IMG/VR virus record: IMGVR_UViG_3300021256_000064 | Location: 128,001-144,402 of that record | Source: a virus | Reading direction: 5' to 3' (one strand) | DNA length: 16,402 nt | Part shown: positions 316 through 16,402 of the stretch, in pieces | How the letters are laid out: each line of letters begins with the position of its first letter | Position numbering within the stretch: position 1 is the first letter of the stretch | Program-made: the position numbers and the translations under genes | The notes under the pieces: generated by a model | What the model saw: the letters and a program-made list of their open reading frames with translations, nothing else | Told to the model about the DNA's origin: nothing | The model's database searches: none

Positions 316-576
316 TTAAACATATTTTATAGTTAATTTATGCTCATTATATTTTAACATTTCTTGCTCTTGAATTTTTTTAACAATACCCTGATTATAA
401 TGTTTAGCTCCTGTCAAGTCAACTTGATAAGTATTGTAAATCTATGATAATTTAAATATGGTAGAAGGAATATCTTCTACTTTAACTTTTCTTGCTTCTA
501 TTTTATTACCATCTTCATAAACATAAAGAATTTGATATAAATCAAAAGGATGAATAATTCCTATAATTTTTCTCAT
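316..576 (-). CDS. hypothetical protein (~86 aa) with one in-frame TAG at 442..444
   Basis: ATG at 576..574 is preceded by AAAGGAG (complement of + 581..587) with a 4-nt spacer. The track ORF 442..648 ends at TAG 442..444. The same frame stays open for another 41 codons to TAA 316..318, which is unusual in DNA this AT-rich. The gene Y / gene X boundary assumes TAG is sense. Confidence 0.4.
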
Positions 577-586
577 ATTTCTCCTT

Positions 587-973
587 TCAACATTGAATAA
601 CCCAATCATCGCAATTAAATAAATAGTAAGCAAATGCTTCTCCACCAATCTAAATCCAGATTTCCCATTTATCTTCTTCTTGTTCTATTGAAAGAATTTT
701 TCCTCTATTTTTTAATATATCAATGAGTTCATTTGCGGCAACCGCAGGTGGGTTACGGTTCAATTTTTCGTATAAATGAAATACTGTAAAATCATATCTT
801 TCTCGACAAAGTAACATAGCATATCCATCAATCTGCCAATTAAACCAATCTTCTAATTCTTTTTTAATTGATTCAATCTTTTTACCAGTTAGCTTGCCTT
901 GTTGTAATATTAATTGTTTATTAAAATCATATAATGTCCCTAATGAAACATCATGTTTATTAGTTTTTTTCAT
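587..973 (-). CDS. hypothetical protein (107 aa if TAG terminates; ~128 aa if TAG 650..652 is read through to TGA 587..589)
   Basis: ATG at 973..971 with AAAGGAG RBS upstream (complement of + 978..984). The ORF ends at TAG 650..652. Read-through adds 20 codons and ends at TGA, which overlaps the RBS of the next gene. Confidence 0.4.
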
Positions 974-995
974 TAGAAAACTCCTTTTTATTTAA

Positions 996-1481
996 TTAAA
1001 AATCAAGACCTTGATATAAAACTCTTTGATTTCTACTGCCACGTAATTCAAGTGTAATATCTCTTTCTGCATCAATATAAGGGCCGTCTATTAGAACATC
1101 AATTTGAGACAATATGTGATTAATTTTATCATTATGTTTCTTTTTTAAATCTTCTAAAAGGTAGCCTGTCCAAACAAAAATTTTAATTTGCGGGAAAGCA
1201 GCTCTTACACTTGTAATAATTTTATCAACTTCTTCTAAATTTTCTTCACATAAGGGTTCTCCCCCTAAAACAGAAAAGTTTCTTGTAATATTATTTGCAC
1301 AGATTGCTTTAATAATTTGTCCTCGTATATCAGTGGGTACCTCTTTGCCGCCATTAAAACTCCATGTTTCAGGATTTTGACAACCTGGGCAATGATGTGG
1401 ACAACCTTGTGTCCAAAATGAGACGCAAGTGCCAGTCCCATTTGCGAAGTCATTTTTTATTAAACCTGCATATCTATCCAT
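996..1481 (-). CDS. nrdG: anaerobic ribonucleoside-triphosphate reductase activating protein (radical SAM)
   Basis: 161 aa. N-terminus is GLIKNDFANGTGTCVSFWTQGCPHHCPGCQNPETW, i.e. the NrdG-type CxxxCxxC radical-SAM cluster motif. GAGGAG RBS upstream. Stop is TAA. It sits immediately downstream of nrdD and the FNT gene. Confidence 0.9.
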   Translation of the reverse strand: MDRYAGLIKNDFANGTGTCVSFWTQGCPHHCPGCQNPETWSFNGGKEVPTDIRGQIIKAICANNITRNFSVLGGEPLCEENLEEVDKIITSVRAAFPQIKIFVWTGYLLEDLKKKHNDKINHILSQIDVLIDGPYIDAERDITLELRGSRNQRVLYQGLDF

Positions 1482-1483
1482 TT

Positions 1484-2044
1484 TTATTTACTTAACTCCT
1501 CAATTAATATTGCTCCTAATGAGTTACCAAGAACAATAAGTATAAATTTAAAAATATTTATTAAAGACAAATTGAATAACAGATAAGGAAAATCTGCTAT
1601 ACAATGCTCTGCTCCAATAAGAATAAAAATCATAATCGCAAAAATTGTTAATATAGTTACTTTATTTTTTACAGCAAAATGAATTAACATTCCACAGAAA
1701 GTAGCGTTTACAAATAAAGTTAATGCACTTTTGGTAAATTTAGTTGCACTAGACGCAGATATAATATTAACAAAATCTGGATTTCCTAAAGCATAAAGAC
1801 CTATTGTAGCTGCTATTGCAATACAATTAAATAATAATATTGTAATTAAGATTTTTTTCTATTCTAATGTTGGTTTAGAATAGAAACCAATTTTTCCAGT
1901 AAATAAATTTAATTGCATATTAATTATTGTTAAAAGTCCAAAACTAAATAATAAAGCTCCTAAAGCAGGGATTGAAGATTGAAGGTTAATAATAACCCCC
2001 AATCCAATTAAGATTCCCGCGAGAGCCGATTTTTTAACACACAT
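1484..2044 (-). CDS. formate/nitrite transporter (FNT)-family channel-like membrane protein, 186 aa with one in-frame TAG at 1859..1861
   Basis: Track ORFs 1859..2044 and 1484..1690 are in the same frame. I translated the gap and it contains a single TAG and no other stop. The joined protein is a hydrophobic multi-TM protein. It has the FNT hallmark motifs NLFTG (compare FocA GADLFTS) and GAEHCIADF (compare FocA GFEHSIANMF), plus a C-terminal LGNSLGA. It is shorter than FocA (~285 aa). The start overlaps the nrdD 3' end by 11 nt. Stop is TAA, 2 nt before the nrdG ATG. Confidence 0.55.
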
Positions 2045-4361
2045 AATCTTCCACTGCTCCCATATAACGACGTTGTCCTCTTAGTAAAGATGAATGCTTA
2101 AATCTCATTTCTGTTTCCTGTTGTTTTCCAAGATTAAAGGCTGTTTTATAATCTCCTGTTAAATAGCCTGTAACTCTACGCAATCTCTATATATTTGTTC
2201 CTCCGCACATTGGACATTCATTATTAATTTCTCCAGTGTATCCGCAATTTAAACATAAATCATTAGGAACATTTAATGCGAAATAAGGAATATCTTTATC
2301 CATAGCATAATTAACAATTTGTTCAAGTGCATCAATATTATGTAAGATTCCACTATCTAATTCTACATAAGTAATGCATCCTGCATTTGAATACCCAGTT
2401 AGTTGACTTTCAATATCAATCTTTGTAAATGGGTCAATTTCTTTCCAAACTGGAACGTGAATACTGTTAGTAAAGAACTCTTTATCACTTACATTAGGAA
2501 TTTCTCCATATTTTTCTTTAAATTTTTTCATGGCAGTATAGCATAAATTCTCAGCAGGAGTATAATAAACACCAAAGTTAAGTTTATATTTTTGTTTATA
2601 TTCCGCGCATCTGTCTTTAAATAATTGTTCAATACGTTTGGCAAGTTCCATACCTTCATCTGTTGTATGGTCTTTACCTATAAGTATTTGAAGAGTTTCT
2701 GCTAAGCCAAGTTGACCAAGAGCTAATGTGCCATGTTTAAGCGCGGATCTAATTCCTTCTTCAGGTTTATAACCTAACATGGTATTATTTTCCCACATAA
2801 ACTTTGCAGATTCAGGAGATTGAGAACAGATATATTCAAATCTTTCAATTAACATATCTTTAGCTTCATTAATTTTTTGATCAAGTAATAACATAAAATA
2901 TCCAATAATATTAGGATCATTTATTCCAATATTTTTTGTCCAACGATAATTAGCTTCCATAGCAAGAGTTGGAAGAATAATTGTTACAGGACAAATATTA
3001 CCGCGCCCGTCTTTACGCTGTGGATTTACACCTGGTTCTACATTTATATCTGCTCCATTAGCCGTACGGCATCCCATTGTAGAGAAATATGTAGTTGGGT
3101 CATTTTTGTCATAACCTGCATTTCCGCTCCAATCAACATTAGCGTAATTTGGATATAATCTTTTTGCTGTTGATTCAAGAGCTAATCTGTATAAATCATA
3201 ATTTGGAGTTCCTGGTTCTTTATTAACTCCTTTCATTACTTGGAAGATTCCACAAGGAAAAATTGATGTTTTATGGAATTTACCATTTCCTTTTATACTG
3301 CCTTCAAGTAATGCTTTAATAACCATTCTTCCTTCTGGAAGAGTACAGGTCCCATAGTTAATTGAAGTAAAGGGTAATTGATTGCCACTTCTACTTTGTA
3401 ATGTATTAAGATTATGATACATACCCTCAACCGCTTGTTGAAGCTATTTAACTGTCATATCCATAGCATATTGGTATGCTTTTTTATATTTTTGATATTC
3501 TAAATTATCAATACTAAAATTATCAGAATATTGGTTACGAATATTTATAAATTTTAAATGGCTTCCATTATTTTCTTTATTATAATATAAATCTGATGAT
3601 AATTCTATATATCTTAATCCATCAATATAATGTTTCCAAAAACTTTTTCTTACATAAGGAACCATTGTCCAATCTAAGTGAGTTGCTGATACGCCTCCAA
3701 ATTGTTGTAAACTTTGTAATTGAAATATTACTGCAACAAGTTGAAAAGCTGTATTAATTGAGTTTGCTGGTCTTACGTCTGTTTGACGAGTATTAAATCC
3801 TTTCGCTAATAAATCATCAAAAGGCACTGATAGACAATTATGCATACCAACTGCATATGTATCTAAATCATGAATATAAATTTCATTATTTAAATGATTT
3901 TCTCTAGCCATTTTTGACATACAATTATCAAGAGCGTATTGTTTGGAAATAATTGAATCAAATTCCCCGCGGCGACCACCAAAGGAATGTTCATCAACAT
4001 TAGCATTTTGATTATCAATTTTAGAACCTGCAAGTTTTTCTTGCGCTGCCCGCATCATTTTATTATTCCAATTTCTTTCTCTTGTTCTTTCTTCGCGATA
4101 TTTAATATACGCTTTTGCTACATCTTTTCTTTTTGTAGACATTAATCCATTTTCTACTAAGTCTTGAATTTCTTCAATAGATAATGGATGAGTTTCTTCT
4201 TCACAGTAGCCTTCAATATAATTTGCTATATTCTATGCTTTTGTTTCAGCATATTCAGAAATCTACCCATCTACTGCTTTAAAAGATTTTAAAATTGCAT
4301 TTTTAATTTTTTGTGTATCAAATGGCATTTGTCTACCATCTCTTTTGATTATATAAATCAT
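2034..4361 (-). CDS. nrdD: anaerobic (class III) ribonucleoside-triphosphate reductase, ~775 aa, with four in-frame TAG codons (4263..4265, 4233..4235, 3444..3446, 2187..2189)
   Basis: Track ORFs 3444..4142 and 2187..3422 are in one frame and joined by TAG. Upstream of 4142 the same frame continues through two more TAGs to ATG 4361..4359, with GGAGGA RBS. The N-terminus MIYIIKRDGRQMPFDTQKIKNAILKSFKAV...EEIQDLVENGLMSTKRKDVAKAYIKYREER is an ATP-cone that aligns with E. coli NrdD (VMKRDGCKVPFKSERIKEAILRAAKA...INEIQTAVENQLMS...ARAYIEYRHDR). Downstream of TAG 2187 lie the glycyl-radical motif LRRVTGYL and the NrdD C-terminal tail NLGKQQETEMRFKH. The C-terminal Zn cysteines are CLNCG...CPMCGG. Final stop is TAA 2034..2036. 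Confidence 0.85.
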
Positions 4362-4429
4362 AATATATCCTCCTAGTTAGATAAAATATTTTTAGGGTTA
4401 CTATATATTATAAAAAACTTTTAATAAAA

Positions 4430-4819
4430 TTAATCATTTTTGTCCAATGTATTATTCTCATCTTTAGGGTAATGGAAAGTCTTTTTTCCTTGACGCCATT
4501 CTAAATCACACATTTCTGGAAATTCTTCTTCCATTTGCAGCGCTCCTAATATATTAAATGCAGCAGCTGCTAAATGATCCTCATCATCCCACCCCGCAAT
4601 ATATTTAGCTAAATGTCTTAAAGCTGAATCAAGAAAAGACGACAATGGAATCCCTTTTAAATAATTAAAACGCCCATATTTTTTTGCGCCCTCTTCATAG
4701 AGCTTAGATAAACGTAATAATGCCATCATGGGGAGAGAGAGCATATCTCCCTTCCCTTCATGCATGTCTCTAACCGCTCCTGTGTTGAACTAAGTTCTTT
4801 CTCCAGAATCTTTTATCAT
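4430..4819 (-). CDS. putative phage dNTP pyrophosphohydrolase-like protein (dATP/dGTP diphosphohydrolase N-terminal-domain family), ~129 aa with in-frame TAG at 4790..4792
   Basis: The track ORF starts at an internal ATG (4765). The same frame extends through TAG 4790..4792 to ATG 4819..4817. That ATG is preceded by AAAGGAG (complement of + 4829..4835) with an 11-nt spacer. The resulting N-terminus MIKDSGERT*FNTGAVRDMHEGKG matches what I recall of the conserved N-terminus of this phage family (DSGxRxEFxTGAxRD...GKG). The family call is from memory and should be checked. Later in the protein are YEEGAKKYG and DDEDHLAAAAFNILGA. Stop is TAA. Confidence 0.55.
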
Positions 4820-4824
4820 AAATA

Positions 4825-7800
4825 TTAAATCTCCTTTTCTGTTGAAATTCTTTCATGTTCTAATGTAATATTTTTGTTTGTTACATTTGTAATTCTATAT
4901 AACTGATGTGTTGGTGTTGATTTATAAGTTTTTGCTACAAAAGTATCTTCTCGCCTAAATCCTGTAATTAAAACTTTTGTACCACGAGAGAACCAGCCTT
5001 TTTCTAATACTTTTTTAGTACCATCTGGTTGTTTTTCAGAAATTTGACGATTAAACATAGCATAATATTCTTTTGTAAATTTTACATTTACAACTCCATC
5101 TGTCGTTAAAATAGCGATAGATGCTTTAGTATTATTTTTACTAATAATTGTTCCTGCAATCCTATATAATTTAAAGATTGGAATTTTTCTATCTCCTCTT
5201 TTAAAGAAATAATCAACTACTGGTTCTTCTGATAAAGATGAAAAATCTACAATACCATATTTATATTTATCAATATTAGCTAATTCATGTTCGTGATAAT
5301 AAAAACACAAACTTTCCATTTCCCACGCAGAAATATTTCCAGTTGCATATTTATTCCATGTTTCATTAAATAATAAATTATTATATTGATTTAATACTTC
5401 ATCTTGATTCTCTTTTAACCAGTTTCTTGCTTCATCCATTTCTTTTTGATAGATTTTATCCCATTTAGTTTGAAGAATACAAGTAATTCCATTAATAACA
5501 TCAAGTTCATTTAAATCATAATATTGTGAATAAAAATTTAACGAACCTTCATCAAATATATAATATTTACCAACTTTTTTATTATCTTTAAGAAATTTAT
5601 TAAATACAAATACTTGTTTTTGTTTATTTAATTCTTCTGGTACTAAACCACTTTTTAATAATCCATTAAAATTTTGTAAAGTTAATCGCTTTTTTGGATC
5701 ACAAACTAATGATACATAATATGCCATAATTGCATATCTTGGATTTTCTTTACAAATTTCTGATGCCCAATCATTATCAACCTTATCAAAAGCTCCTGAT
5801 TTAATTAACGAAATCATTTGAGTTTTATTTAGCGGGCATCTATTCATAAAATCAATAATTCCAGTGTATGGGCGGCCGCCAATAATCTTATCAATAACTG
5901 GTCCACCAATTTTATTAACACCTTTTAATCCAAAAAGAATTTCATTATTTTCTTCATCTGGTTCAAAACTGTATCCAGATTTATTAATATCAATTAATGA
6001 TACTTTAATTCCTTTTGAAGTTATATCTCCAATAGCTTTTGCTAATTTAGAATAATCAGTAGATTTATCTTTAGTATTGTCCTCATCATCATCTTCATCA
6101 TCATCTTCAAGAGAAGCACTATTAATGATTAGACATGCAGTATTCCAATAAATTGGATTCCAATTAGTCGCTAAATAAATTGTCTGAACTCCAATAAAAG
6201 AATATGCAAGAGCATGAATGATAGAGAATGAATATCCCATCTGAGGACCAACACCGCATTTCCAAACATACTTACCAAGAGATGGACTAGAAGCTGTATC
6301 TAATATCTTTTGATGTAATTCTGGAATTTTTGCCATTTGTTTTTTACCAACAATTTTACGTGCGGCATTAGCTTCTTTTAATGAAAAATTGCAAATGTTT
6401 TCATCCATCAACATTCTCATTAACTGCTCTTGTGATGGTGGAACTCCATAAGATTGTTTGAAATATGGTTCAATAAATGTTTGTTCTTCTTTTGTTAAAC
6501 CTGCTCGATTCATTTCTTGATACCATAATGAAATATTATTTTTATAACGAATATATTTTTCCATAGGTGTCTCTTCACCCTTTTCAGATGTCATAAGACG
6601 CATTAAGCCATTGGCATCCGCCATTTCAAGAATATTAGTTGGTTTAATTTTCTTTGCGGCTTGTGATCCCACATCTGAATCAAACTGGAAAACATTTAAG
6701 ACACTATTATTTTGAAGAGCTTCCCATATTTTTTTATTCTCTAAAGGCAAAACTTCTGGATGAAGATATTTATTATATACCTCTCTTAAAGAGAGGTCTT
6801 TATCAATTTTATTATTTTCCTGAAGAAGTTTAATTGTTTGAACAATCTTATCCTGAACTTCTGTTACCAAGAAGTCATATTTTGTCATACCGCATGCTTC
6901 ACATTTATGAAGATCCCATTGAGTTATAATTTCACCTTTTGGAGTTTTCATAAAACATCCAAATTCGTATGGATCTTCATCAAAAAGAATAACACCAGAA
7001 GCATGACTAGACCTTTTATTTATCAACCCTTCAATTGCCATCGCAATATCTAATAAACCAGGATATAAATTAATTTCTGAAATAAAAGGCGCGATAGGTT
7101 TTCTATCTTTATCTTTATTCCCATATACAACATCTTTAAGAGGCCATAAAAAACCTCTCTCACTTGGAATTAAAGAAGATAAAAACTGAGCTGTATCAAC
7201 ATCAATCCCGTCTGGAAAATCTTCTGAGCGATAACCGCGGCAAGCTGTTAATACTGCTGATTTAGTTCCTTCTGTACCAAAAGTCGCAATAAGTGTGCAA
7301 CCAAGGTTTTTTCTACTTAAATCATCAATATCTTTATTGAAATTTTGACCTCGTTCTTCTTTTATCTTTTGAAGAATCAATGGACGTTTTGATGGACAAA
7401 GATCTAAGTCTATGTCGCCTAACTCAACACGTTCTTTATTAAGATAACGCCAGAACGGAAGATCCCATTTAATTGGGTCAAGCTGAGTGATGCCTAAAAG
7501 ATAATGATTTAATCCTGAGCAAGATGAACCACGCCCCGCACCAACTGTACTTCCGCACTCCCAAAAAAGATCAACATAATGCTGAAGAGTTATTGGATAA
7601 CTAAACATATTAGTTCCAAGTTTTTCACTAATAGTTTTTTTAATATCTGCTTCTTCTTCTAATCGAGAAAGATATTCTTTTTTATATATATTTTTATTTA
7701 ATAAATTTTGTAAACATTCATTTACCCAATATCTTTCATATTTATCATCAGAAGATAACATATTTCTTAAAGTTGGATAAAATTCTTCAATATTCATATC

Positions 7801-8784
7801 CCTAGATATTTTTGCGTAAGGATAAAAATTTTTACTTTTAGGATAATCTTTTACCTTTACTTTTGGAATTGTCTGTTGATGTCTAATATCATAGTTCTCA
7901 ATCTTATTATAAATTTCATATGAATTATCTACTAATTCATCATAATTTAATTCCGATGGTATAATATTTTCTTTTATGTCATTTTCATCTTGAAGATACG
8001 CATATTCATAAAATGCATCAACTTCACGTTCTCCGCCTTTTGAGTTAAGATATGCTTTATGTACATATCTATCTTCTTTTTTAAGATAATGTGCATCTGA
8101 TCCAAGAACCATTTTACAATCAAAGGCGGCAGCTACAGCTTTAAGACGTCTATTAACAATAACCTGTTCGCTTGATTGACCTGGCGCACACTCGATATAA
8201 AAGTCATCACCAAAAAGACGCTTACACCATAAGATAAAATCTACAATATCATTATGGGCTTCAGCGGCTCCTATTTTGTCATCATGCTTTTCTGCTTTTA
8301 TAAGATTTAAAAGTTGAGAAGAAACTTCTCCACCAAGACAAGCTGTTGTTGCAATTAAACTATTTGGATATTTATTAACAATCTCTTCAAGTTCATCATA
8401 TGTTGTAGGAACTCTTTCAAGACCTCTATCCCAATAACTATTCATCCAAGCTCTTGAAGAAAGCTCTCTTAATGCTCTGAATCCAATTTTATTTTTTGCA
8501 ATCAAAATAAAATGATAATATTTTTGTCCCATCTCTCTATCAGGAGTTAAATATATTTCATTTCCTAATGCAACTTTAAAATCTGGATGCGTCTTTAAAA
8601 TTTCTTGAGCATAGAAGTTTGCTTGCGGAGCACCGCTCAAACATTCATGATCGGTGAGAGCTATCCCACTTAAACCAATTTCTATTGCTCTATCAATAAG
8701 TGCTGGAATTTTATTAATGCAATCTAATAATCTTATGTTTGAAAATTCTGAGTGAGAATGCACCTCAAACCTTTTGACCATCAC
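4825..8784 (-). CDS. dnaE: DNA polymerase III alpha subunit (DnaE-type, PHP domain N-terminus), 1319 aa
   Basis: One uninterrupted ORF. The N-terminal PHP motifs are EVHSHSEFS...IALTDHECLSG. Size is typical for Pol III alpha. An acidic insertion DDDEDDDEDN lies in the C-terminal region. There are no in-frame TAG codons. Stop is TAA. RBS is AAGAGG. Confidence 0.9.
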   Translation of the reverse strand: MMVKRFEVHSHSEFSNIRLLDCINKIPALIDRAIEIGLSGIALTDHECLSGAPQANFYAQEILKTHPDFKVALGNEIYLTPDREMGQKYYHFILIAKNKIGFRALRELSSRAWMNSYWDRGLERVPTTYDELEEIVNKYPNSLIATTACLGGEVSSQLLNLIKAEKHDDKIGAAEAHNDIVDFILWCKRLFGDDFYIECAPGQSSEQVIVNRRLKAVAAAFDCKMVLGSDAHYLKKEDRYVHKAYLNSKGGEREVDAFYEYAYLQDENDIKENIIPSELNYDELVDNSYEIYNKIENYDIRHQQTIPKVKVKDYPKSKNFYPYAKISRDMNIEEFYPTLRNMLSSDDKYERYWVNECLQNLLNKNIYKKEYLSRLEEEADIKKTISEKLGTNMFSYPITLQHYVDLFWECGSTVGAGRGSSCSGLNHYLLGITQLDPIKWDLPFWRYLNKERVELGDIDLDLCPSKRPLILQKIKEERGQNFNKDIDDLSRKNLGCTLIATFGTEGTKSAVLTACRGYRSEDFPDGIDVDTAQFLSSLIPSERGFLWPLKDVVYGNKDKDRKPIAPFISEINLYPGLLDIAMAIEGLINKRSSHASGVILFDEDPYEFGCFMKTPKGEIITQWDLHKCEACGMTKYDFLVTEVQDKIVQTIKLLQENNKIDKDLSLREVYNKYLHPEVLPLENKKIWEALQNNSVLNVFQFDSDVGSQAAKKIKPTNILEMADANGLMRLMTSEKGEETPMEKYIRYKNNISLWYQEMNRAGLTKEEQTFIEPYFKQSYGVPPSQEQLMRMLMDENICNFSLKEANAARKIVGKKQMAKIPELHQKILDTASSPSLGKYVWKCGVGPQMGYSFSIIHALAYSFIGVQTIYLATNWNPIYWNTACLIINSASLEDDDEDDDEDNTKDKSTDYSKLAKAIGDITSKGIKVSLIDINKSGYSFEPDEENNEILFGLKGVNKIGGPVIDKIIGGRPYTGIIDFMNRCPLNKTQMISLIKSGAFDKVDNDWASEICKENPRYAIMAYYVSLVCDPKKRLTLQNFNGLLKSGLVPEELNKQKQVFVFNKFLKDNKKVGKYYIFDEGSLNFYSQYYDLNELDVINGITCILQTKWDKIYQKEMDEARNWLKENQDEVLNQYNNLLFNETWNKYATGNISAWEMESLCFYYHEHELANIDKYKYGIVDFSSLSEEPVVDYFFKRGDRKIPIFKLYRIAGTIISKNNTKASIAILTTDGVVNVKFTKEYYAMFNRQISEKQPDGTKKVLEKGWFSRGTKVLITGFRREDTFVAKTYKSTPTHQLYRITNVTNKNITLEHERISTEKEI
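6082..6110 (-). repeat. short tandem codon repeat (catcatcatctt-like) encoding the acidic DDDEDDDED tract inside dnaE
   Basis: Direct reading of + 6082..6110 (tcatcatcatcttcatcatcatcttc). It is low-complexity and in frame. Confidence 0.5.
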
Positions 8785-8814
8785 TTTACCTCTTTCACAT
8801 TATAATATAATTAT

Positions 8815-8863
8815 ATTATAAAATAAATAAATAAAAAAGTCAAGCGAGTTGCCCCGCTTGACT
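8815..8863 (-). terminator. rho-independent terminator after the homing-endonuclease gene
   Basis: The 9-bp stem AGTCAAGCG / CGCTTGACT spans 8838..8846 and 8855..8863 with an 8-nt loop. On the minus strand it is followed by a T-rich run (+ 8819..8837 is aaaataaataaataaaaaa). Confidence 0.5.
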
Positions 8864-9029
8864 AGTCATATAAAATAAATATTTAAGCTATCCTGTCCAT
8901 TGGAGTACCCTCCATATTATATTGGTTCAATATGTCAACGAGTTACAATTATTCAAACCATTGGACCGTACCTCTCTTTCATAATATTTATTTCTTACAA
9001 TTATATTATACAAAAAATTTTTTTATTTG

Positions 9030-9605
9030 TCAAATTTTATTTAAATCTTTTTGAGTTGGTATTTCTAATGCTTTTTTATGAATTTCATATCTTTGAGTAT
9101 AAGAATTTAATCTAATATATTTATACCATTTCTTTTTAGAATGAATACATTTATATACAGCTTGTTTTGAGATACCTTTTATATTACAAAAATCAGGGAT
9201 AGAAATAAAATCATTATCATTTTCTTGATTTATTTCTATATTATATGGAATAAAATTTTCTTTTGACATTCTTGGAACAAAATCATTTTTTGATATTGTA
9301 TTATTAATATTAAAATCATTTTCTTTATAAAGAATCCATTCTGGTTCTTTTAATAAAATAGTTGATTTAATGTTTTTAAAAGTTTGATTTAATTTAGGAT
9401 GATATTTTGTAATTAAAAAATATTCAAAACTATTCATTTCTAGCTCATTATTACAATTAAAATAATAAATTTCAAAATTTTTTAAATTTTGAAATTTATT
9501 ATCTTTGCTATGTTCATATAGCCGTCTTTTTAAATTATTTGTTTTTCCAATATATATAATTTTATTCTTTTGAACATATTTATAAATATAATATTTATTA
9601 ATCAT
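9030..9605 (-). mobile_element. free-standing GIY-YIG homing endonuclease gene (191 aa)
   Basis: N-terminus YIYKYVQKNKIIYIGKTNNLKRRLYEH is the GIY-YIG motif. The basic C-terminal tail resembles a NUMOD/HTH DNA-binding tail. The gene is intercalated between the Dda-like helicase and dnaE. Stop is TGA. Confidence 0.8.
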
Positions 9606-9635
9606 TTTTCTCTTTAAATTGGATAATTTTAATTA

Positions 9636-10817
9636 TTACCTCACTAATACTAATTTTTCACTAGCTCTCGTACAAGCTGTATATAGCCATCGAGCATGTT
9701 CATTTTTATCAAATGGAAACTTTTCTTCAAGAACAACTACCTTATCCCATTCACTACCTTGGCTTTTATGGGTTGTAATAGCATAGGCATATGTAAATTC
9801 TTTAGGAACAATTTCCCCATATTTAGAACGTAATTTGCCTAATTTATAAGACAATCGCCAATCACAACATTTTTCTCCAGTAATAATCATTTGGCGATCC
9901 ATCTCTGTCATTTGATAAACATCATTAGTTTCTGGCACAACTAAATCACCAACTAAAACATCAAATTTTCTTATATCACTTTGTACAAACCTGGGAATTT
10001 CTCTCCAAGTGCGAAAACTATTTTGAAGAATACCAATAGTCCCATTAATTAAAGCATCTCCATTTAAGCTTGAATCATCCCAGTAATTGCGGAGACATAT
10101 AATCTTATCTCCATCAACAGGTTCTCCAGTTCTTCCCTGTAGTGCGCGCATTTGATTATTAATGGCTCGTCGCTTTGCATTTGTTGCAGTTAGAATTTGG
10201 TCTCCCCATTGTAATACTCCAGTATTCAAATCTGAGTAAGGAATAATTTTTACTTCATTACCATTAAAATAATCAATTGACTCTTGATTTCTGATTTTCA
10301 TAGTAAGCTGAATAATTTCAGAATCTTCTTCCTGTCTCATAATTTCATCAAGAAAAATATGAGGATTATCTAATAGATGATTATCTTCATCTTTATCAAT
10401 AGGCGGCAACTGGAAAGGGTCTCCTAAACAAATAACATATACTCTATGCTTAAATAATAACTCTATTAAAGATTTGGGAGCCATAGAAACTTCATCAACT
10501 ACAACTACATCATAATCAATAAGTGGTTTTGGCTTTCTAAAGAAACCACCCGCTGGCCGCGGTATATGTTCATATAGTAACCGATGAAGAGTTGCTACAT
10601 TTTTATTTCCTTTTTTCTTTAATACCTCTGCAGCCTTACCAGTAAAAGCACAATAACATACCCTATCTTCTTCAACATTAAGAGCGTCGATGATATAACG
10701 CACTAGGGTCGACTTTCCTGTTCCTGCATATCCCGCTATTGTGGTAAATTTATATCCAGCTCGATGTCGCGCCACAGCTGTTTTTAATCCTTCCTCTTGT
10801 TTTTTTGTTAATATCAT
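9636..10817 (-). CDS. Dda/RecD-like superfamily 1 ATP-dependent DNA helicase (393 aa)
   Basis: Walker A is GYAGTGKST and Walker B is VVVVDEVSM. C-terminal motifs ITTHKSQGSEWDKVVV and YTACTRA match the AAA_30/UvrD_C_2 (RecD/Dda) architecture. The start overlaps the upstream stop in TAATG. Stop is TAA. Confidence 0.8.
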   Translation of the reverse strand: MILTKKQEEGLKTAVARHRAGYKFTTIAGYAGTGKSTLVRYIIDALNVEEDRVCYCAFTGKAAEVLKKKGNKNVATLHRLLYEHIPRPAGGFFRKPKPLIDYDVVVVDEVSMAPKSLIELLFKHRVYVICLGDPFQLPPIDKDEDNHLLDNPHIFLDEIMRQEEDSEIIQLTMKIRNQESIDYFNGNEVKIIPYSDLNTGVLQWGDQILTATNAKRRAINNQMRALQGRTGEPVDGDKIICLRNYWDDSSLNGDALINGTIGILQNSFRTWREIPRFVQSDIRKFDVLVGDLVVPETNDVYQMTEMDRQMIITGEKCCDWRLSYKLGKLRSKYGEIVPKEFTYAYAITTHKSQGSEWDKVVVLEEKFPFDKNEHARWLYTACTRASEKLVLVR

Positions 10818-11068
10818 TATTCATGCTCTCCAATTACTTCATCTAAAATTTGAACAAAACGCATTATGTCTCTATTCGCTCTTTGCCGATACACAGTCCA
10901 TTCAGTATGATTAGAGACATTGCTCTGTCTATCTCTTAGATATTCATATTCTGCCATTTGTTCTCTGGCTCGAATATATCTATATATTAAAGAATCATAT
11001 TGATAGCCTTTTAATTTCTTTTCATCTATTGTATTAATTTTTAAACTTTCATCTGACATATCTAACAC
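10817..11068 (-). CDS. hypothetical protein (83 aa)
   Basis: Intact ORF. It is coupled to the helicase gene through a TAATG overlap. No family recognised. Confidence 0.5.
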   Translation of the reverse strand: MLDMSDESLKINTIDEKKLKGYQYDSLIYRYIRAREQMAEYEYLRDRQSNVSNHTEWTVYRQRANRDIMRFVQILDEVIGEHE

Positions 11069-11083
11069 CTCTATTATTTTTCT

Positions 11084-11539
11084 TTAATTTTCTTCTAATT
11101 TTTTTCCCATTCTTAATTTCATTAAACGACCTACAAATTCCGCTTGAGTTAGAACTGTTTTTGAAGGATCATTCTTTCCTATTGAGTGTGATAATATTGC
11201 TGGGCGGCTAGCCTCTAAAGCTTTTCTAAATCCTTCATTTTGATATAGTGCGTTATAGGCTTTATTTAAAAGAATTTGATATTCCTGACTATCACGTTTA
11301 TATTCTTTACCTTGCCAATATAAAGTTTGTGTTTTCCACCATTTTTTATCTTTTCCTTTATACTTTGCTTTTTTCCCAACTAAAGAACATACATATTTTT
11401 GCATATCAGTATTTTTAAACTTTAAAGATTGCAAAAAGCCTTCCATTGAGTTACAAGGTATCTCATCTATAATAAAAGGATGCGGTGCAAAATTACTTAA
11501 TGAGGCTGCAGGATAACCTGAACCACTTCCAATATCCAT
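11084..11539 (-). CDS. NADAR (YbiA/DUF1768)-like domain protein (151 aa)
   Basis: SLSNFAPHPFIIDEIPCNSMEGFLQSLKF aligns with E. coli YbiA FSNFAAWPIKVDGKTWPTSEHYFQAQKF. The motif ILSHSIGKND aligns with YbiA LVEHTEND. AGGAG RBS and a strong upstream promoter are present. Stop is TAA. Confidence 0.55.
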   Translation of the reverse strand: MDIGSGSGYPAASLSNFAPHPFIIDEIPCNSMEGFLQSLKFKNTDMQKYVCSLVGKKAKYKGKDKKWWKTQTLYWQGKEYKRDSQEYQILLNKAYNALYQNEGFRKALEASRPAILSHSIGKNDPSKTVLTQAEFVGRLMKLRMGKKLEEN

Positions 11540-11569
11540 ATTTATTCTCCTAACATTTTATTTATATAT

Positions 11570-11598
11570 ATTATATCAAATTTTTATAAAAAAATCAA
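11570..11598 (-). promoter_or_regulatory. sigma70-like promoter for the NADAR gene (TTGATT-N17-TATAAT with TGn extended -10)
   Basis: On the minus strand, -35 TTGATT is the complement of + 11593..11598. Then a 17-nt spacer. -10 TATAAT is the complement of + 11570..11575, and a TG lies one nt upstream of it. Confidence 0.45.
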
Positions 11599-11604
11599 AA
11601 AGAA

Positions 11605-11637
11605 AAAATGCGATTGAAAAAATTCCAAACGCATTTT
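11605..11637 (-). terminator. possible weak rho-independent terminator downstream of recJ-like gene
   Basis: Stem AAAATGCG (11605..11612) pairs with CGCATTTT (11630..11637). The loop is 17 nt and may pair internally. On the minus strand a T-run follows. The large loop makes this weak. Confidence 0.3.
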
Positions 11638-11673
11638 TCGTTTCCTGTGGACGACTGCCTGCGCGCCGAGCCG

Positions 11674-13455
11674 TTAAAAGAAGTATTTAGCAGAATCTAC
11701 AATTTCAAAATCCTACATAATAAGCTGTGGGTAGACGCAACCATTCCACTAATTTTTATTACATTTACAAATAGCGTTTACCTCTAAATATCCTGTTGTT
11801 GTAAATTTGGTAATTTCTTCTTCAGTTCCATTAAATTTAATAATAGATAATCCGTTAGGTAAATTAAATTTTAAAGTATTACTTTTCATAACTTTAAAAT
11901 TAGAATCAGTAACTTTAAAATTAATATTTACATAAGCTCTGTCTATATCTTGACCCCAATAATCATTCATATCTGCAATATCTAAAATGCGCTGATTGTT
12001 GTTTTCTTTTTCATTAAAATTATAATCAATTCTATAAATAGGTTCAACAGAGACATCTTCAAGAAGCTAATCAATCTTATAAAGAAAATCACTTATATGA
12101 TCTGCTTCTATACCAAGTCCCGCCGCATTGTCATGTCCCTATACATATAAAACTCCTGGACATTGTTCAAGTACTTCTTTAAAACTATTAATTCCAGTTT
12201 TTGTATATCCACGCATAGAGCCTTCATAAGTTGCTTTATCATTTCTATTAGTTTTAGTTAATAAACAACAAGGTCTTTGATATTTTGCCATAAATTTATT
12301 TGCAATTAAACCACGAATTTCAGAATCAATTTTATTAGGTTCTAATAAGAATAAAAGAATTTTATGGTCAAGCATATGATTAGTTTCAATCATTTTTTCT
12401 AACATAGCTAATCCTGCATCTTCTGCTCTTGTTTGTCTATTTTTAACATTCGTAACTGTTCTAATTGCCTGTAGAATTAATTTTTCTTTCTAACCTAATT
12501 TATGTCCACGCTTGTTTGAAATAACTTCTGTAAAAGCCTTATGTTTTAACATAGAATTAAAAAGTAAATTTTTCTATTCTATTGTTCCACTTCGAGTTAC
12601 AGCATTAATAAAAGGTACAATAAAAAATGCGGCGCCCATAGATGTACATCTCATATTAGGATCCGATGAAACATAATCTGCTTTTGATAAAGGAAATGAG
12701 TTTTTATCAATCATGTAGTCGATAAAAGGATTTTTAATATTCTATTTTTTGAACCCTTTAGTAATTAAATATCTAGTTTCAAATGAACGTAAAGACATCA
12801 TATCCCCACAGTTCCCTAGTGCAACCAAATCTAAAAAACCATCTGCTAATTTTATATCTAATTGATTATCAATATAACGACAAAATTGCCAAACAACCCC
12901 AACACCAGATAATTCCTTATTAGGATAATCTGATAATTGATTATTAATAATAATAGCATTTTCACTAATATGATCTGCTAAGTGATGATCTAAAACTAAT
13001 ACTTGAATATTTTTGTCTGTTAATATCTTATGATAACTATAATCATTACTACTTGAATCTGGGCAAATCACAAGCATTGGATTACGAGCTAATACAAAAT
13101 CAATACAATCACTTAATCCATGTTGTTTACTATCGTGCATATACCAATCTAAATGATTAACGACCCAAGTGGGAAATATCTTATATAAATAATTAATAAG
13201 AAGAGCTGCAGATGTATAACCATCACAATCACAGTCTACAATTACTAAAGCATCAGCATTTTCTCTTACAGTATTAATAATAGCCATTAAACCATTTTTG
13301 AGATTTGTTTCTCCTAAAGACAACGGGGAATTAATATCCTAATCAGATAGATTTACATAATGTAAAATTTCATCTTCCGCAATTCCTCTATTGTATAATA
13401 TTTGCTGTATTGTTGAAAAATTCTAATTTGGTTTATTTATTAACTAATATCTCAT
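11674..13455 (-). CDS. recJ: RecJ-like single-stranded-DNA exonuclease (DHH + DHHA1), ~593 aa, with ten in-frame TAG codons
   Basis: Track ORFs 12742..13323, 12139..12405 and 11749..11970 are all in one frame. The gaps between them, translated by hand, contain only TAG stops. These are at 13444, 13423, 13339, 12742, 12574, 12490, 12139, 12067, 11749 and 11713. The joined protein shows the RecJ N-terminus ILYNRGI, DHH motif I VIVDCDCDGYTSAALL, DHH motif III VLVLDHHLADH, FINAVTR (E. coli RecJ LNAAGR), and the DHHA1 motif *GHDNAAGLG (E. coli FGGHAMAAGL). ATG 13455..13453 is preceded by AGAGGAG. The final stop is TAA 11674..11676. The last ~25 codons after TAG 11749 are less certain. Confidence 0.75.
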
Positions 13456-13538: not shown

Positions 13539-13922
13539 TTAATATAATAAAATTATCCAAGTTATAATAATTTGAATAAAATGAATTATCTGATCTTGAA
13601 TCAAATTAATTTTTAATTGATTAGCTTTTAAATCATCTACATACATATGAATTATTAAGTTTATTATAAATAGTGGAATAGACCATAAAAAGGTTTTTAT
13701 ATAATAAAAGCTATAAATAAAAATTGGCAACTGAATCATAAAAGACCAACTAAAGCTATGACAAAATAACGCCATTAAATAATCATTTTTATATAATTGA
13801 TTAGGTGCATTTTTATTCCACCAAGATTTTTGTTTACCTGAAGCTAACCAGCCTTGTAAATAATAATCATCAATAATATGACAAAAAATCATTGTTATTA
13901 AAATAAAAATTTTTATATTCAT
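13539..13922 (-). CDS. hypothetical integral membrane protein (127 aa)
   Basis: Strongly hydrophobic with multiple predicted TM segments. The start overlaps the primase stop. Stop is TAA. Confidence 0.5.
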   Translation of the reverse strand: MNIKIFILITMIFCHIIDDYYLQGWLASGKQKSWWNKNAPNQLYKNDYLMALFCHSFSWSFMIQLPIFIYSFYYIKTFLWSIPLFIINLIIHMYVDDLKANQLKINLIQDQIIHFIQIIITWIILLY

Positions 13923-15016
13923 TATTCTATTCTTATCCTTTCATTAAACAATTTTATAAAAATATCTTTACCACAATCAATAGGGGAATCTTTATAACCT
14001 AATAAATTATCTTTATCAAACATATAACTAATATTTACATAGCTTCCATATTTATTATATAATGTTTGTAATTTAATAACCCATTTTTCCCATTCTTTAT
14101 CTCTAGTTTTTTGAAACTGCTTATCAAAAGCGATTATAATTTCTTTTACTCCTAAAGACATCAATAATTTAACTTGATAATTAATTAAATTACTGCCGCA
14201 ACATGCTACACTAATATCTGAGTCTTTTCCAAAATATGACGCATATTTAAGACAACTTTTTTCACCTTCAAAAACAATTGCTTTTTGAAATATAGAAATA
14301 GTCTTTTTACTATTGTTCAAATTATATAAATTAAAACCAAGAGGATGATTATAAAGTTTTCCTTTTATATAGGCAGGACGATATTTTCCATATATCTCAT
14401 TTTCTTTTATAAGAGTTCTTTCTCGAATTCCAATTAATCTGTTATCTATGTCATAATGTGGAATAACAATTCCTTCGCTTATTGGATTATAACATATACC
14501 TCTTGATTCCATTATATCAGATGTTATATCTTCTTTTTCCCAAGGTAAGATACGGGGATGAGGTAAATATTTTAATATTTTATCATCATAAGTTTTTAAT
14601 TCTATAATTTGCGGTTGAGATTTTTCTTTATTTCTTTTAAAATTATTAATAATTTTCCAATCTTCATTAGCGTCTTGATTATCTTCAAAATCAAATATTT
14701 CAGCTGTACATCCAAAATATCTAGCCACAAAAGATATTGCCTTAGAAAGAGAAAAGCCTTCAATTCCTGCGGTTTTATTTACTCTTAAAACTAGATCATA
14801 TATATCAAATGACGCATCTCCACATCCTGTATAACAATGAAATAAATGAGTATTTTCATAATAATAAAGCTTATGGCTATCGCCGCCATGACAGATAGTG
14901 CGGGCGGTGAATAATCCATTACCCATAATTGGTTCACCGCCTAATTCGCTAACTAAATCAAATACTTCTTCTATTGATAAATTTTCTTTTAAAGTGTCTT
15001 TGTCATATTTGTACAT
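13922..15016 (-). CDS. dnaG: DnaG-type DNA primase (CHC2 zinc finger + Toprim), 364 aa
   Basis: Zinc-binding motif CHGGDSHKLYYYENTHLFHCYTGCG. Toprim motif VFEGEKSCLKY with a downstream acidic cluster. It follows the DnaB-like helicase. Stop is TAA. Confidence 0.85.
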   Translation of the reverse strand: MYKYDKDTLKENLSIEEVFDLVSELGGEPIMGNGLFTARTICHGGDSHKLYYYENTHLFHCYTGCGDASFDIYDLVLRVNKTAGIEGFSLSKAISFVARYFGCTAEIFDFEDNQDANEDWKIINNFKRNKEKSQPQIIELKTYDDKILKYLPHPRILPWEKEDITSDIMESRGICYNPISEGIVIPHYDIDNRLIGIRERTLIKENEIYGKYRPAYIKGKLYNHPLGFNLYNLNNSKKTISIFQKAIVFEGEKSCLKYASYFGKDSDISVACCGSNLINYQVKLLMSLGVKEIIIAFDKQFQKTRDKEWEKWVIKLQTLYNKYGSYVNISYMFDKDNLLGYKDSPIDCGKDIFIKLFNERIRIE

Positions 15017-15165
15017 TTTTTATCTCGATATTGTTTTCTAAATATTTTTAATCTTTTACAACTATTACATTTAGTATGATTATATTTACAATCCCAACAG
15101 TTATCATTATCCCACCAAAACCATCTTGGCGGTTGAGGTCTTGGTTTTCTAAATTTTTCTTTCAT
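14989..15165 (-). CDS. possible small Cys-rich (CxxC...CxxC zinc-ribbon) protein, 58 aa, not in the ORF track
   Basis: ATG 15165..15163 overlaps the dnaB-like stop in TAATG, the same coupling seen elsewhere in the window. It encodes MKEKFRKPRPQPPRWFWWDNDNCWDCKYNHTKCNSCKRLK... and ends at TAA 14989..14991. It overlaps the primase start by ~28 nt in another frame. Confidence 0.35.
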   Translation of the reverse strand: MKEKFRKPRPQPPRWFWWDNDNCWDCKYNHTKCNSCKRLKIFRKQYRDKKCTNMTKTL

Positions 15166-16388
15166 TAAAATGCGCTCGCTTCTATTTTTGGTGTTACTGT
15201 GATTTTTAAATCTTCTATATCTATTAATTCATAGTTATAATTAGTTACAAATAATGGATTAATACGACAAGTTCCTCGTTCTGATTTACACCAGAGTAAT
15301 ATATCTTTATATCTAGCGCGTCTATTTTTATAAACAGACATTTTTATATCAGGCATTTCGATACCCATTGAATTAACAATATTTTTTAAAGATTCTCTAT
15401 CATCTTGGCTCGTTTGTAACATAATCATACCACAATCTATTTTATCAGCAATAGCTTTAGCGCCACGAAGAAGATTTTGATCGTACTGCTGAGCTGTTAC
15501 ATAGTCAGAATTTAACTGCGTTGCAGACATTACAAATACGCCATATTGATTACATAAATCTTTAATTCTTACACTTATCATAAAAAGAATGTTATCTTCT
15601 CTTAATCCTTTAACTCCTGCTTTTGAACTAATTTCACTAAGAATTTTCATACTTGAATGAATATAATCCATAAATACATATCTTACTCCATGATTACGGA
15701 TATTACTTTTAATTGTATTTTCAATATCTTGTAATGAAAAGTCTGGTAATTTTTTAATATATAATGGGCTTTTTGCAAGAATCTCCGCGGCTTCACTTAC
15801 TCGCTCCCATTCATCTTCAACATACGTATTTTCAAGAATATGAGATTCGTTTACATTAGCCAAAAATGCCATCATCATAGTTTGGATCTCATCTTCTTCT
15901 TGTTCTGTTGTGATAAATACAGTTGGTTCACGAGTTCCATTATCTTCCCATTGTTTAGTCTCAAGGTTATAAAGTTTATTGCAAGCAATAAAACAAGCAT
16001 CTGCAATCATGGAACGAGTCTTTCCGACGCCAGTAGCGGCAGACCGCAAATAGAATTTTTTTAATCTAGCCCCGCGATGAATTGTATTAACTAATCTTCC
16101 ATATAAAGGATAACCAACTTCAGGATTTTTTCTTAGTCTTTCAAGTAAAGCTAATGCACCATCACCAGCTTGAATAATTTCATCTTCTGAGTTATCAACA
16201 TATTTAGATTTTATCTCTTCTATCTTATCATTAATAAGATTAGCAATTTCATTAATTGGAGTATTATCAAACCAAGTTTCTTGGGCTTCTTTCTTTTTTA
16301 CATCTAAAATATTATCCGGATCATATAACCAAGATAAATTCATTCCAACATTTTTATTATACATCCGTAAAAGGGTCATTTTCTTCAT
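15165..16388 (-). CDS. dnaB: DnaB-family replicative DNA helicase (RecA-like C-terminal domain), at least 407 aa
   Basis: Walker A is SAATGVGKTRS. Other DnaB-like motifs are DYIHSS and VMSATQLNSD. The frame upstream of ATG 16388 stays open to the window edge, so the N-terminus may lie outside the window. Stop is TAA. Confidence 0.8.
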   Translation of the reverse strand: MKKMTLLRMYNKNVGMNLSWLYDPDNILDVKKKEAQETWFDNTPINEIANLINDKIEEIKSKYVDNSEDEIIQAGDGALALLERLRKNPEVGYPLYGRLVNTIHRGARLKKFYLRSAATGVGKTRSMIADACFIACNKLYNLETKQWEDNGTREPTVFITTEQEEDEIQTMMMAFLANVNESHILENTYVEDEWERVSEAAEILAKSPLYIKKLPDFSLQDIENTIKSNIRNHGVRYVFMDYIHSSMKILSEISSKAGVKGLREDNILFMISVRIKDLCNQYGVFVMSATQLNSDYVTAQQYDQNLLRGAKAIADKIDCGMIMLQTSQDDRESLKNIVNSMGIEMPDIKMSVYKNRRARYKDILLWCKSERGTCRINPLFVTNYNYELIDIEDLKITVTPKIEASAF

Positions 16389-16402
16389 ACGATTATAATA
16401 AT

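Follow-up and report, generated by a model that had tools for sequence, protein, structure and literature searches.

In phages that use a genetic code unlike that of their host, only two changes have been seen, TAG to glutamine (Gln) and TGA to tryptophan (Trp), and this limit has been explained by the ready charging of suppressor tRNAs by the glutaminyl- and tryptophanyl-tRNA synthetases (GlnRS and TrpRS) (Borges et al.). The reading of TAG as Gln, genetic code 15, is used by crAss-like, Lak, phAss-1 and other gut phages. For crAss-like phages a proteomic validation has been published, the phAss-1 group comprises EF1/SPbeta-like gut phages, and a phage-encoded suppressor tRNA with the anticodon CUA, tRNA(CUA), has been reported in 35-40% of amber-recoded phages. 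In the present study a window of 16,402 nucleotides from a rumen phage (positions 128,001 to 144,402 of the IMG/VR virus record IMGVR_UViG_3300021256_000064) was analyzed, in which an initial annotation had noticed in-frame TAG codons in conserved genes. The window phage resembles the code 15 phages in that conserved genes contain in-frame TAG, which does not serve as a terminator, in that recoded codons cluster in genes for structure and lysis, with few or none in core replication genes, and in that close relatives use other codes. In contrast to the code 15 phages, in which the TAG columns of alignments are Gln, they are glutamate (Glu) in the clade of the window phage, and no suppressor tRNA was found in the scanned part of the clade genome. 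It is fairly probable that this clade of rumen SPbeta-like phages has reassigned amber to Glu, a code that is undescribed for viruses and prokaryotes. It would have arisen beside sister lineages with TAG=Gln, TGA=Trp and the standard code, presumably via a tRNA(CUA) with Glu identity, and catalogues that apply translation table 15 would mis-assign Gln.

The window has a G+C content of 29%, and all of its genes are on the minus strand. Open reading frames (ORFs) were called with TAA and TGA as the sole stops and TAG was read through, whereby fragmented ORFs joined into complete genes. Eighteen in-frame TAG codons are spread over six genes, ten of them in the recJ-like gene, four in nrdD and one in each of four others. 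The six genes are the following:

11674..13455, minus strand: recJ-like DHH/DHHA1 exonuclease with DHH, DHHA1 and RecJ_OB domains; 593 codons, 10 TAG (at 13444, 13423, 13339, 12742, 12574, 12490, 12139, 12067, 11749 and 11713), stop TAA
2034..4361, minus strand: nrdD, anaerobic ribonucleotide reductase with ATP-cone; 775 codons, 4 TAG (at 4263, 4233, 3444 and 2187), stop TAA
1484..2044, minus strand: short formate/nitrite-transporter (FNT)-like channel (PF01226, E=7e-13); 186 codons, TAG at 1859, stop TAA
4430..4819, minus strand: dATP/dGTP diphosphohydrolase-like protein (PF18909); 129 codons, TAG at 4790, stop TAA
587..973, minus strand: hypothetical protein of 128 amino acids; TAG at 650, stop TGA
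316..576, minus strand: hypothetical protein of 86 amino acids; TAG at 442, stop TAA

Not a single internal TAA or TGA is present in the window genes. The 17 stops of the window consist of 15 TAA, two TGA and no TAG, and in a near-identical strain from ENA the 30 called genes stop with TAA (26) or TGA (4), again never with TAG. Off-frame on the coding strand, TAA and TGA together have a density of 0.091 per codon, and the probability of a frame free of both is about 1e-25 for 593 codons and about 1e-32 for 775 codons. The Pfam profile NRDD matches the nrdD read-through protein in a single stretch (2-562 of 562), the ATP-cone domain extends over two TAG codons, and DHH, DHHA1 and RecJ_OB were all detected by Pfam in the recJ read-through protein. 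In the hypothetical protein of 128 amino acids the 20 residues past the TAG at 650 (..AFAYYLFNCDDWVIQC) are kept in relatives whose codon at this site is a sense codon. Therefore, the counts and positions of the TAG codons given by the initial annotation could be verified, as well as its observation that conserved sequence continues past them and that no gene ends with TAG. It had named the homing endonuclease gene as the sole user of TGA, and this had to be corrected: two genes end with TGA, the GIY-YIG gene (stop at 9030) and the gene for the hypothetical protein of 128 amino acids (stop at 587).

Nominal stop codons within genes might also indicate pseudogenes or errors of sequencing or assembly, and their presence is all that favors this explanation. 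Random nonsense hits would yield TAG in all 18 cases with a probability of about 1e-13, and neither TAA nor TGA nor a frameshift accompanies the in-frame TAG codons. Independent assemblies from ENA, JGI and Logan were compared (ERZ28612970 scaffold_240, JGI 3300002641, ERZ28612978 and ERZ12302814; 99.4-100% identity), and every window TAG was covered unchanged by independent assemblies (five assemblies, from different samples). In addition, the TAG positions are common to species that are about 80% identical, and the downstream segments are conserved. The TAG-only pattern, the five assemblies, the shared sites and the downstream conservation refute pseudogenes and assembly errors, the probability of which is negligible; pseudogenization had already been dismissed in the initial annotation. 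Context-dependent read-through, insertion of pyrrolysine or bypass of the codon, instead of a reassigned codon, are very improbable, too. For pyrrolysine it can be said that lysine (Lys) ranks second in the likelihood test described below and that ARAGORN tags any tRNA with the anticodon CUA as pyrrolysine tRNA. However, Glu leads Lys by 20.9 log units in the window, with a larger margin in the relatives, and no pyl genes are present in any called gene list. Read-through is at odds with TAG densities of up to 5% of the codons and with the base that follows TAG in the window (A 10, T 3, G 3, C 2), which reveals no fixed context. Bypass is at odds with the alignments of the relatives, in which the TAG sites fill a residue position and not a gap. 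These explanations were thus rejected. Taken together, it is hardly in doubt that amber has been reassigned to an amino acid in this phage, and the corresponding proposal of the initial annotation is strongly supported. TAG is a genome-wide sense codon with gene-dependent use and without a role as terminator.

The residues that relatives have at the TAG sites were counted in alignments of orthologues from more than 100 related loci, which had been translated from DNA with TAG kept as a symbol of its own before they were aligned. The results for the 18 window sites, all on the minus strand, were as follows:

12574..12576, minus strand: recJ codon 294; relatives Glu 34, Asp 1
12490..12492, minus strand: recJ codon 322; relatives Glu 31, Gln 2, Lys 1, Asp 1, Leu 1
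11749..11751, minus strand: recJ codon 569; relatives Glu 24, Gln 3; in the solved RecJ 8y30 the aligned residue is the N-E-W-N-G Glu
11713..11715, minus strand: recJ codon 581; relatives Glu 15, Gln 3, Lys 2, Val 2; Gln in the solved RecJ 8y30
12742..12744, minus strand: recJ codon 238; relatives Glu 14, Lys 10
12139..12141, minus strand: recJ codon 439, directly 5′ of GH..AAG; relatives Gln 16, Glu 12; Gly in 8y30
12067..12069, minus strand: recJ codon 463; relatives Glu 9, Gln 5, Ala 5, Lys 4
13339..13341, minus strand: recJ codon 39; variable, Asn 4, Glu 4, Ala 4, Ser 3; TAG in seven relatives as well
13423..13425, minus strand: recJ codon 11; variable, Lys 8, Asn 4, Glu 4, Pro 3
13444..13446, minus strand: recJ codon 4; variable, Lys 9, Gln 8, Glu 4
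3444..3446, minus strand: nrdD codon 306; relatives Glu 25 of 25; Arg, Asp and Asp in solved NrdDs
4233..4235, minus strand: nrdD codon 43, in the ATP-cone; relatives Glu 11, Ile 5; Glu in the solved NrdDs 8p23 and 9d3x
4263..4265, minus strand: nrdD codon 33, in the ATP-cone; relatives Glu 11, Tyr 4, Asp 3
2187..2189, minus strand: nrdD codon 725, directly 5′ of RLRRVTGYL; relatives Gln 14, Ser 4, Thr 1; Asp, Asp and Asn in solved NrdDs
4790..4792, minus strand: diphosphohydrolase codon 10; relatives Glu (GAA) 4 of 4
1859..1861, minus strand: FNT-like channel codon 62; five relatives, all different
650..652, minus strand: codon 108 of the hypothetical protein of 128 amino acids; relatives Lys 12, Ser 5, Arg 4
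442..444, minus strand: codon 45 of the hypothetical protein of 86 amino acids; relatives Gln 8, Lys 5, Asn 4

The solved RecJ is too distant for most of the TAG columns, and no sequence match to the diphosphohydrolase was found among solved structures. Several expectations of the initial annotation can be judged from these counts. The TAG columns favor Glu and the segments after them are conserved in the homologue alignments, and the Glu that had been expected for the diphosphohydrolase site was indeed found in all four relatives. The TAG at 12139 had been equated with the first Gly of the RecJ GGH motif; it aligns in this way with the solved RecJ, but within the phage family the residue is Gln or Glu. 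The suggestion of a code 15-type phage with Gln as the precedent is not supported, as the TAG columns are Glu in the relatives, both for the window genes and for the rest of the genome.

In a Codetta-like test of column likelihoods the values per window TAG site were -1.69 for Glu, -2.92 for Lys and -3.11 for Gln, and the eleven control codons, among them CAA, CAG, GAA, GAG, AAA, AAG, GAT, AAT, TAT and TCA, were all assigned correctly. The log-likelihood of Glu minus that of Gln was +39.7 for a window-like strain and +41.6, +41.3, +34.7, +31.5 and +27.5 for five relatives, each of these six lineages having at least 9 TAG sites. In contrast, one distant relative (L036) was of the Gln type, with a difference of -11.5, and two others (L056 and L060) put TAG at invariant Gln columns, showing that the method does yield Gln where Gln applies. 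The alignment of TAG with Gln that characterizes code 15 was confined to few distant relatives, and Glu was favored in each lineage of the clade. Four of 17 window TAG sites are at columns with at least 60% Glu in the relatives; in the window calibration such columns contained 41% of the real Glu codons, 0.7% of the real Gln codons and 0.3% of the real Lys codons.

A much larger number of sites could be evaluated in the late genes of the clade, which contain 1283 TAG codons. 436 of them (34.0%) are in columns with at least 80% Glu, and 37 (2.9%) in columns with at least 80% Gln. The respective calibration values were 51.9 and 0.4% for real Glu codons, 1.3 and 52.9% for real Gln codons, and 0.4 and 0.5% for real Lys codons. 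The preference for Glu over Gln was the same in every TAG-rich genome, with conserved Glu versus conserved Gln sites of 52 versus 4 (contig A), 53 versus 3, 23 versus 2 and 20 versus 0, and the late genes of the window-like strain have six conserved-Glu, no conserved-Gln and 18 variable TAG sites. In the terminase 26 of the 31 columns that hold TAG are Glu columns, mostly at 100%. Between close relatives TAG and GAA/GAG are swapped freely, even where Glu is otherwise invariant. Across the RecJ proteins of the relatives the Glu codons drop as TAG rises (slope -1.37, r -0.65), and Gln remains nearly flat. Beyond the phage family, the Glu of solved NrdDs at the TAG at 4233 and that of the solved RecJ at the TAG at 11749 also agree with Glu.

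From these comparisons it is concluded that TAG probably encodes glutamate in this phage, and several observations have to be set against this conclusion. The TAG sites show weaker conservation than is usual for Glu sites: the summed Glu-minus-Gln score of the window is +24, versus 59±8 for random sets of real Glu codons. About 3% of the TAG codons are in conserved-Gln columns, which is about 8 times the rate of real Glu codons. In addition, a tRNA(CUA) was not found with ARAGORN and Rfam in about 113 of the about 133 kb (about 85%) of the clade composite genome, and it would not be easy to charge such a tRNA with Glu, as bacterial glutamyl-tRNA synthetase (GluRS) normally reads the anticodon.

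Two other readings of the codon have to be considered. Ordinary genetic code 15, the code of crAss-like, Lak and phAss-1 phages, in which a Gln-type amber suppressor would insert Gln at TAG, is the sole amber reassignment described in phages. A Gln-like tRNA(CUA) is encoded by a relative outside the clade (L171, 9274-9349), some distant relatives have TAG at invariant Gln columns, and two window sites lean toward Gln and thus also speak against Glu, namely the TAG at 2187, which is the clearest case, and the TAG at 442. However, code 15 would require changes from Glu to Gln at dozens of otherwise invariant Glu positions, common to several species, including recJ 294, recJ 322, nrdD 306 and the 26 terminase columns. 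Conserved-Glu columns contain 0.9-1.3% of the real Gln codons versus 19-34% of the TAG codons, and the summed window score of +24 is beyond all 20000 resampled sets of Gln codons (-42±9). Code 15 is therefore quite unlikely. Ambiguous decoding, by which TAG would specify a mixture of Glu and Gln, is unlikely. It could result, for example, from a Gln-type suppressor that is charged with Glu by a non-discriminating GluRS and is only partly amidated by GatCAB in a Firmicute host without GlnRS. The TAG sites indeed fall between the real Glu sites and the real Gln sites, and the best two-component fit, with 79% Glu-like sites, exceeded a pure Glu model by 4.9 log units, which is a further point against an exclusive insertion of Glu. 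The excess of TAG at conserved-Gln columns was observed in every Glu-type genome, including contig A, and the most strongly expressed and most essential genes avoid TAG, as would be expected of a noisy codon. In contrast, many invariant Glu positions tolerate TAG, where a large fraction of Gln should be harmful, and the excess at conserved-Gln columns is also expected from the change of CAG to TAG, which is a single transition; it is due either to this transition or to the insertion of some Gln, and the two are not separable.

If TAG is translated as Glu, decoding is presumably performed by a tRNA(CUA) that carries Glu. The tRNA scans were performed with ARAGORN at default settings, with relaxed and intron settings for the first about 1.6 Mb of the loci, and with Rfam. 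They yielded no suppressor tRNA in the window, in agreement with the initial annotation, and no release-factor gene was seen in the sampled parts of the clade genomes. The tRNA genes of the clade are Arg(ACG), Ile(UAU), Asn, Leu(UAG), Asp, His and Arg(UCU), located beside a phage sigma-70 gene, and this cluster is at the very border of the about 113 kb of the composite genome that were covered. The sigma-70 gene is embedded in the small tRNA cluster in three loci (L317 1-2900, L324 960-2820 and L327 360-1790). A tRNA-like remnant on the minus strand of L317 (about 760-830) has a good T-arm and acceptor stem; it has no D-arm and is below the Rfam thresholds, and it was not counted. Outside the clade, relatives encode, in addition to the Gln-like tRNA(CUA) of L171, Trp-like tRNAs(UCA) with a long extra arm, which are opal suppressors (L165 176-271, L166 176-271 and L168 499-594), and a tRNA-Glu(CUC) (L133 139-213), which is one anticodon change away from an amber-reading tRNA-Glu. 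The presence of these three tRNAs indicates that several genetic codes exist in one phage family.

In infected cells the ribosomes read TAG as a sense codon, and termination occurs at TAA, in most cases, and at TGA. It is tempting to speculate how this might be achieved. During infection a Glu-carrying tRNA with the anticodon CUA would be synthesized or recruited. It could be a derivative of a tRNA-Glu, for example of a phage tRNA-Glu(CUC) like that of L133; alternatively, a Gln-type suppressor might be charged by a non-discriminating GluRS of the host and be left unamidated. Its gene may be in the about 15% of the genome outside the scan, or the tRNA may be supplied otherwise. The phage would thereby drive a switch of the code, and genes with TAG could be completed only after the amber-reading tRNA is present; it would follow that the replication genes, which are needed first, are devoid of TAG. 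A model of a code switch during infection has been proposed earlier for other recoded phages (Borges et al.).

The use of TAG is significantly uneven between the window genes (Monte-Carlo test of heterogeneity, P=0.0007). In recJ TAG makes up 10 of the 38 Glu-or-TAG codons, which is an enrichment (P=1e-5), while it accounts for none of 101 in the gene for DNA polymerase III alpha (P=0.017). TAG is also absent from the genes for GyrA, GyrB and ligase, which are located upstream of the window. Three tail genes of the near-identical ENA strain contain 13 TAG (259 codons), 14 TAG (959 codons) and 8 TAG (357 codons). A relative that is about 80% identical (IMG/VR 3300021400_000126) has 73 TAG in the 3010 codons of the tape-measure gene, 23 in a protein of 1684 codons, 12 in the terminase and 8 each in the portal and in a RuvC-like protein of 162 codons. 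Overall, the density of TAG is high in the genes for terminase, portal, tape measure, tail and lysis, with a peak of 5% of the codons, and moderate in recJ, nrdD and accessory genes. The core replication genes (polymerase III alpha, DnaB, primase, helicase, gyrase and ligase) lack TAG, and the late genes for structure and lysis are enriched in it, with one exception: the genes for the most abundant virion proteins, namely the major capsid protein, the scaffold and the tail tube, of IMG/VR 3300021400_000126 are free of TAG (L272 6321-7971 and 11925-12881; L245 4355-13387). As they belong to the same late operons as the tape-measure gene with 73 TAG and the terminase gene with 12, the avoidance tracks the expression level in addition to the timing. 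This suggests that TAG is read less efficiently or less accurately than GAA. A different departure from the early/late pattern is a predicted membrane protein of about 320 amino acids, which has 7-11 TAG (L106 7438-8412, L089 7417-8334 and L087 7473-8426) and is surrounded by TAG-free early genes for ligase, an ORF of 290 amino acids and gyrase.

The 11 window genes without TAG include those for polymerase III alpha, a RecD-like helicase, primase, DnaB, NrdG and the GIY-YIG protein:

4825..8784, minus strand: DNA polymerase III alpha; 1319 codons, no TAG, stop TAA
9636..10817, minus strand: RecD/PIF1-like helicase; 393 codons, no TAG
13922..15016, minus strand: primase-like protein; 364 codons, no TAG
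15165..16402, minus strand: DnaB-type helicase, runs off the window end; no TAG in 407 codons
996..1481, minus strand: nrdG activase; 161 codons, no TAG
9030..9605, minus strand: GIY-YIG homing-endonuclease-like ORF; no TAG, stop TGA

The GIY-YIG-like ORF is inside an island of 22-24% G+C, with the helicase gene on one side and the polymerase III alpha gene on the other. In a number of relatives (L024, L032, L034, L039-L041, L043, L044, L047, L048, L053, L054 and L060) the match to polymerase III alpha extends over about 5.1 kb instead of 3.9 kb, which indicates an insertion of about 1.2 kb in the polymerase gene, possibly an intein, an intron or a homing endonuclease. The FNT-like channel is truncated at 186 amino acids, and its gene (1484-2044, minus strand) has an 11-nt overlap with the 3′ end of nrdD and is immediately followed by nrdG. 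Class III ribonucleotide reductases use formate as reductant, and therefore a phage formate channel may supply the NrdD enzyme with its substrate. Between dnaB and the primase gene the ENA strain, which is otherwise 99.85% identical, has an insertion of 465 bp that is absent from the window (at about 15016; L001 5337-5800) and encodes a YonG_N-like protein of 149 amino acids with 4 TAG. To the right of 15017 the identity between the window and this strain falls to 90%, which indicates a recombination boundary.

The window phage is an SPbeta-like siphophage of about 107-135 kb from the rumen of sheep and cattle. Related contigs of 125-148 kb were found in sheep and cattle rumen samples, and the SPbeta families YorF, YorH, YonG, YomO, YomU, YomV, YomW, YonB and YonD are represented among the neighboring genes. 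The nearest cultured relatives are SPbeta-like phages of Enterococcus and Bacillus, with about 40% identity of polymerase III alpha; among GenBank phages no polymerase III alpha closer than 41% was found, and an exact 40-mer of the window had no match in the GTDB species genomes. In JGI metagenomes this 40-mer is present once, in a contig of 107 kb (Ga0326513_10000028), from which the window itself derives. SPbeta and the SPbeta-like phages of Bacillus and Enterococcus (EF1/VRE9) share with the window phage the Yom, Yon and Yor families, the polymerase III alpha at about 40% identity and genomes of 125-140 kb, but they use the standard code, while TAG is a sense codon in the window phage.

Another similar group is the 'Agate' clade, whose phages have genomes of about 127 kb, were found in the guts of cattle, pigs and tortoises and have predicted Firmicutes hosts; it includes standard, TGA-recoded and a few TAG-recoded members (Borges et al.). 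Compared by description, the family of the window phage is like the Agate clade in habitat, in genome size, in the mixture of codes among close relatives, in structural and lysis genes that are arranged in several modules and in homing endonucleases in the early genes. A further point of similarity is that relatives of the window phage encode Trp-like tRNAs(UCA). The TAG-recoded Agate members have been treated as using Gln, and release factor 2 (RF2) has been reported in two of them; in the window clade, in contrast, no such gene was seen in the parts that were sampled.

A search of the literature yielded no report of TAG being read as Glu in a phage or a bacterium. In the nuclear codes 30 (peritrich ciliates) and 31 (Blastocrithidia) TAA and TAG both encode Glu, and to our knowledge UAG=Glu is known only from these eukaryotic nuclear codes. 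The reading of UAG as Glu is what the window phage has in common with them, by analogy only. They are codes of cellular nuclei in which TAA is reassigned as well, whereas the window phage is a bacterial virus and TAA ends 15 of its 17 window genes.

A consequence for databases became apparent from the terminase. In a protein catalogue (P0001-P0120) 111 homologues have almost only Glu or Gln at the 12 reference TAG positions, while the relatives analyzed at the DNA level have GAA/GAG or TAG at these positions. Therefore, the Gln residues of the terminases are table 15 translations of TAG. Gene callers and protein databases use table 15 for these genomes, and if TAG is Glu, systematic Glu-to-Gln errors would be present in the annotations, alignments and structure predictions of the clade.

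As amber recoding of phages is already known, the novel aspect is most likely the residue, Glu. If true, a lineage with TAG=Glu breaks the rule that in phages TAG is changed to Gln and TGA to Trp only, and a different route of tRNA charging would be needed. Related genomes of about 125-140 kb with four codes, the standard code, TGA=Trp, TAG=Gln and TAG=Glu, would then represent a natural experiment on how the meaning of a codon changes.

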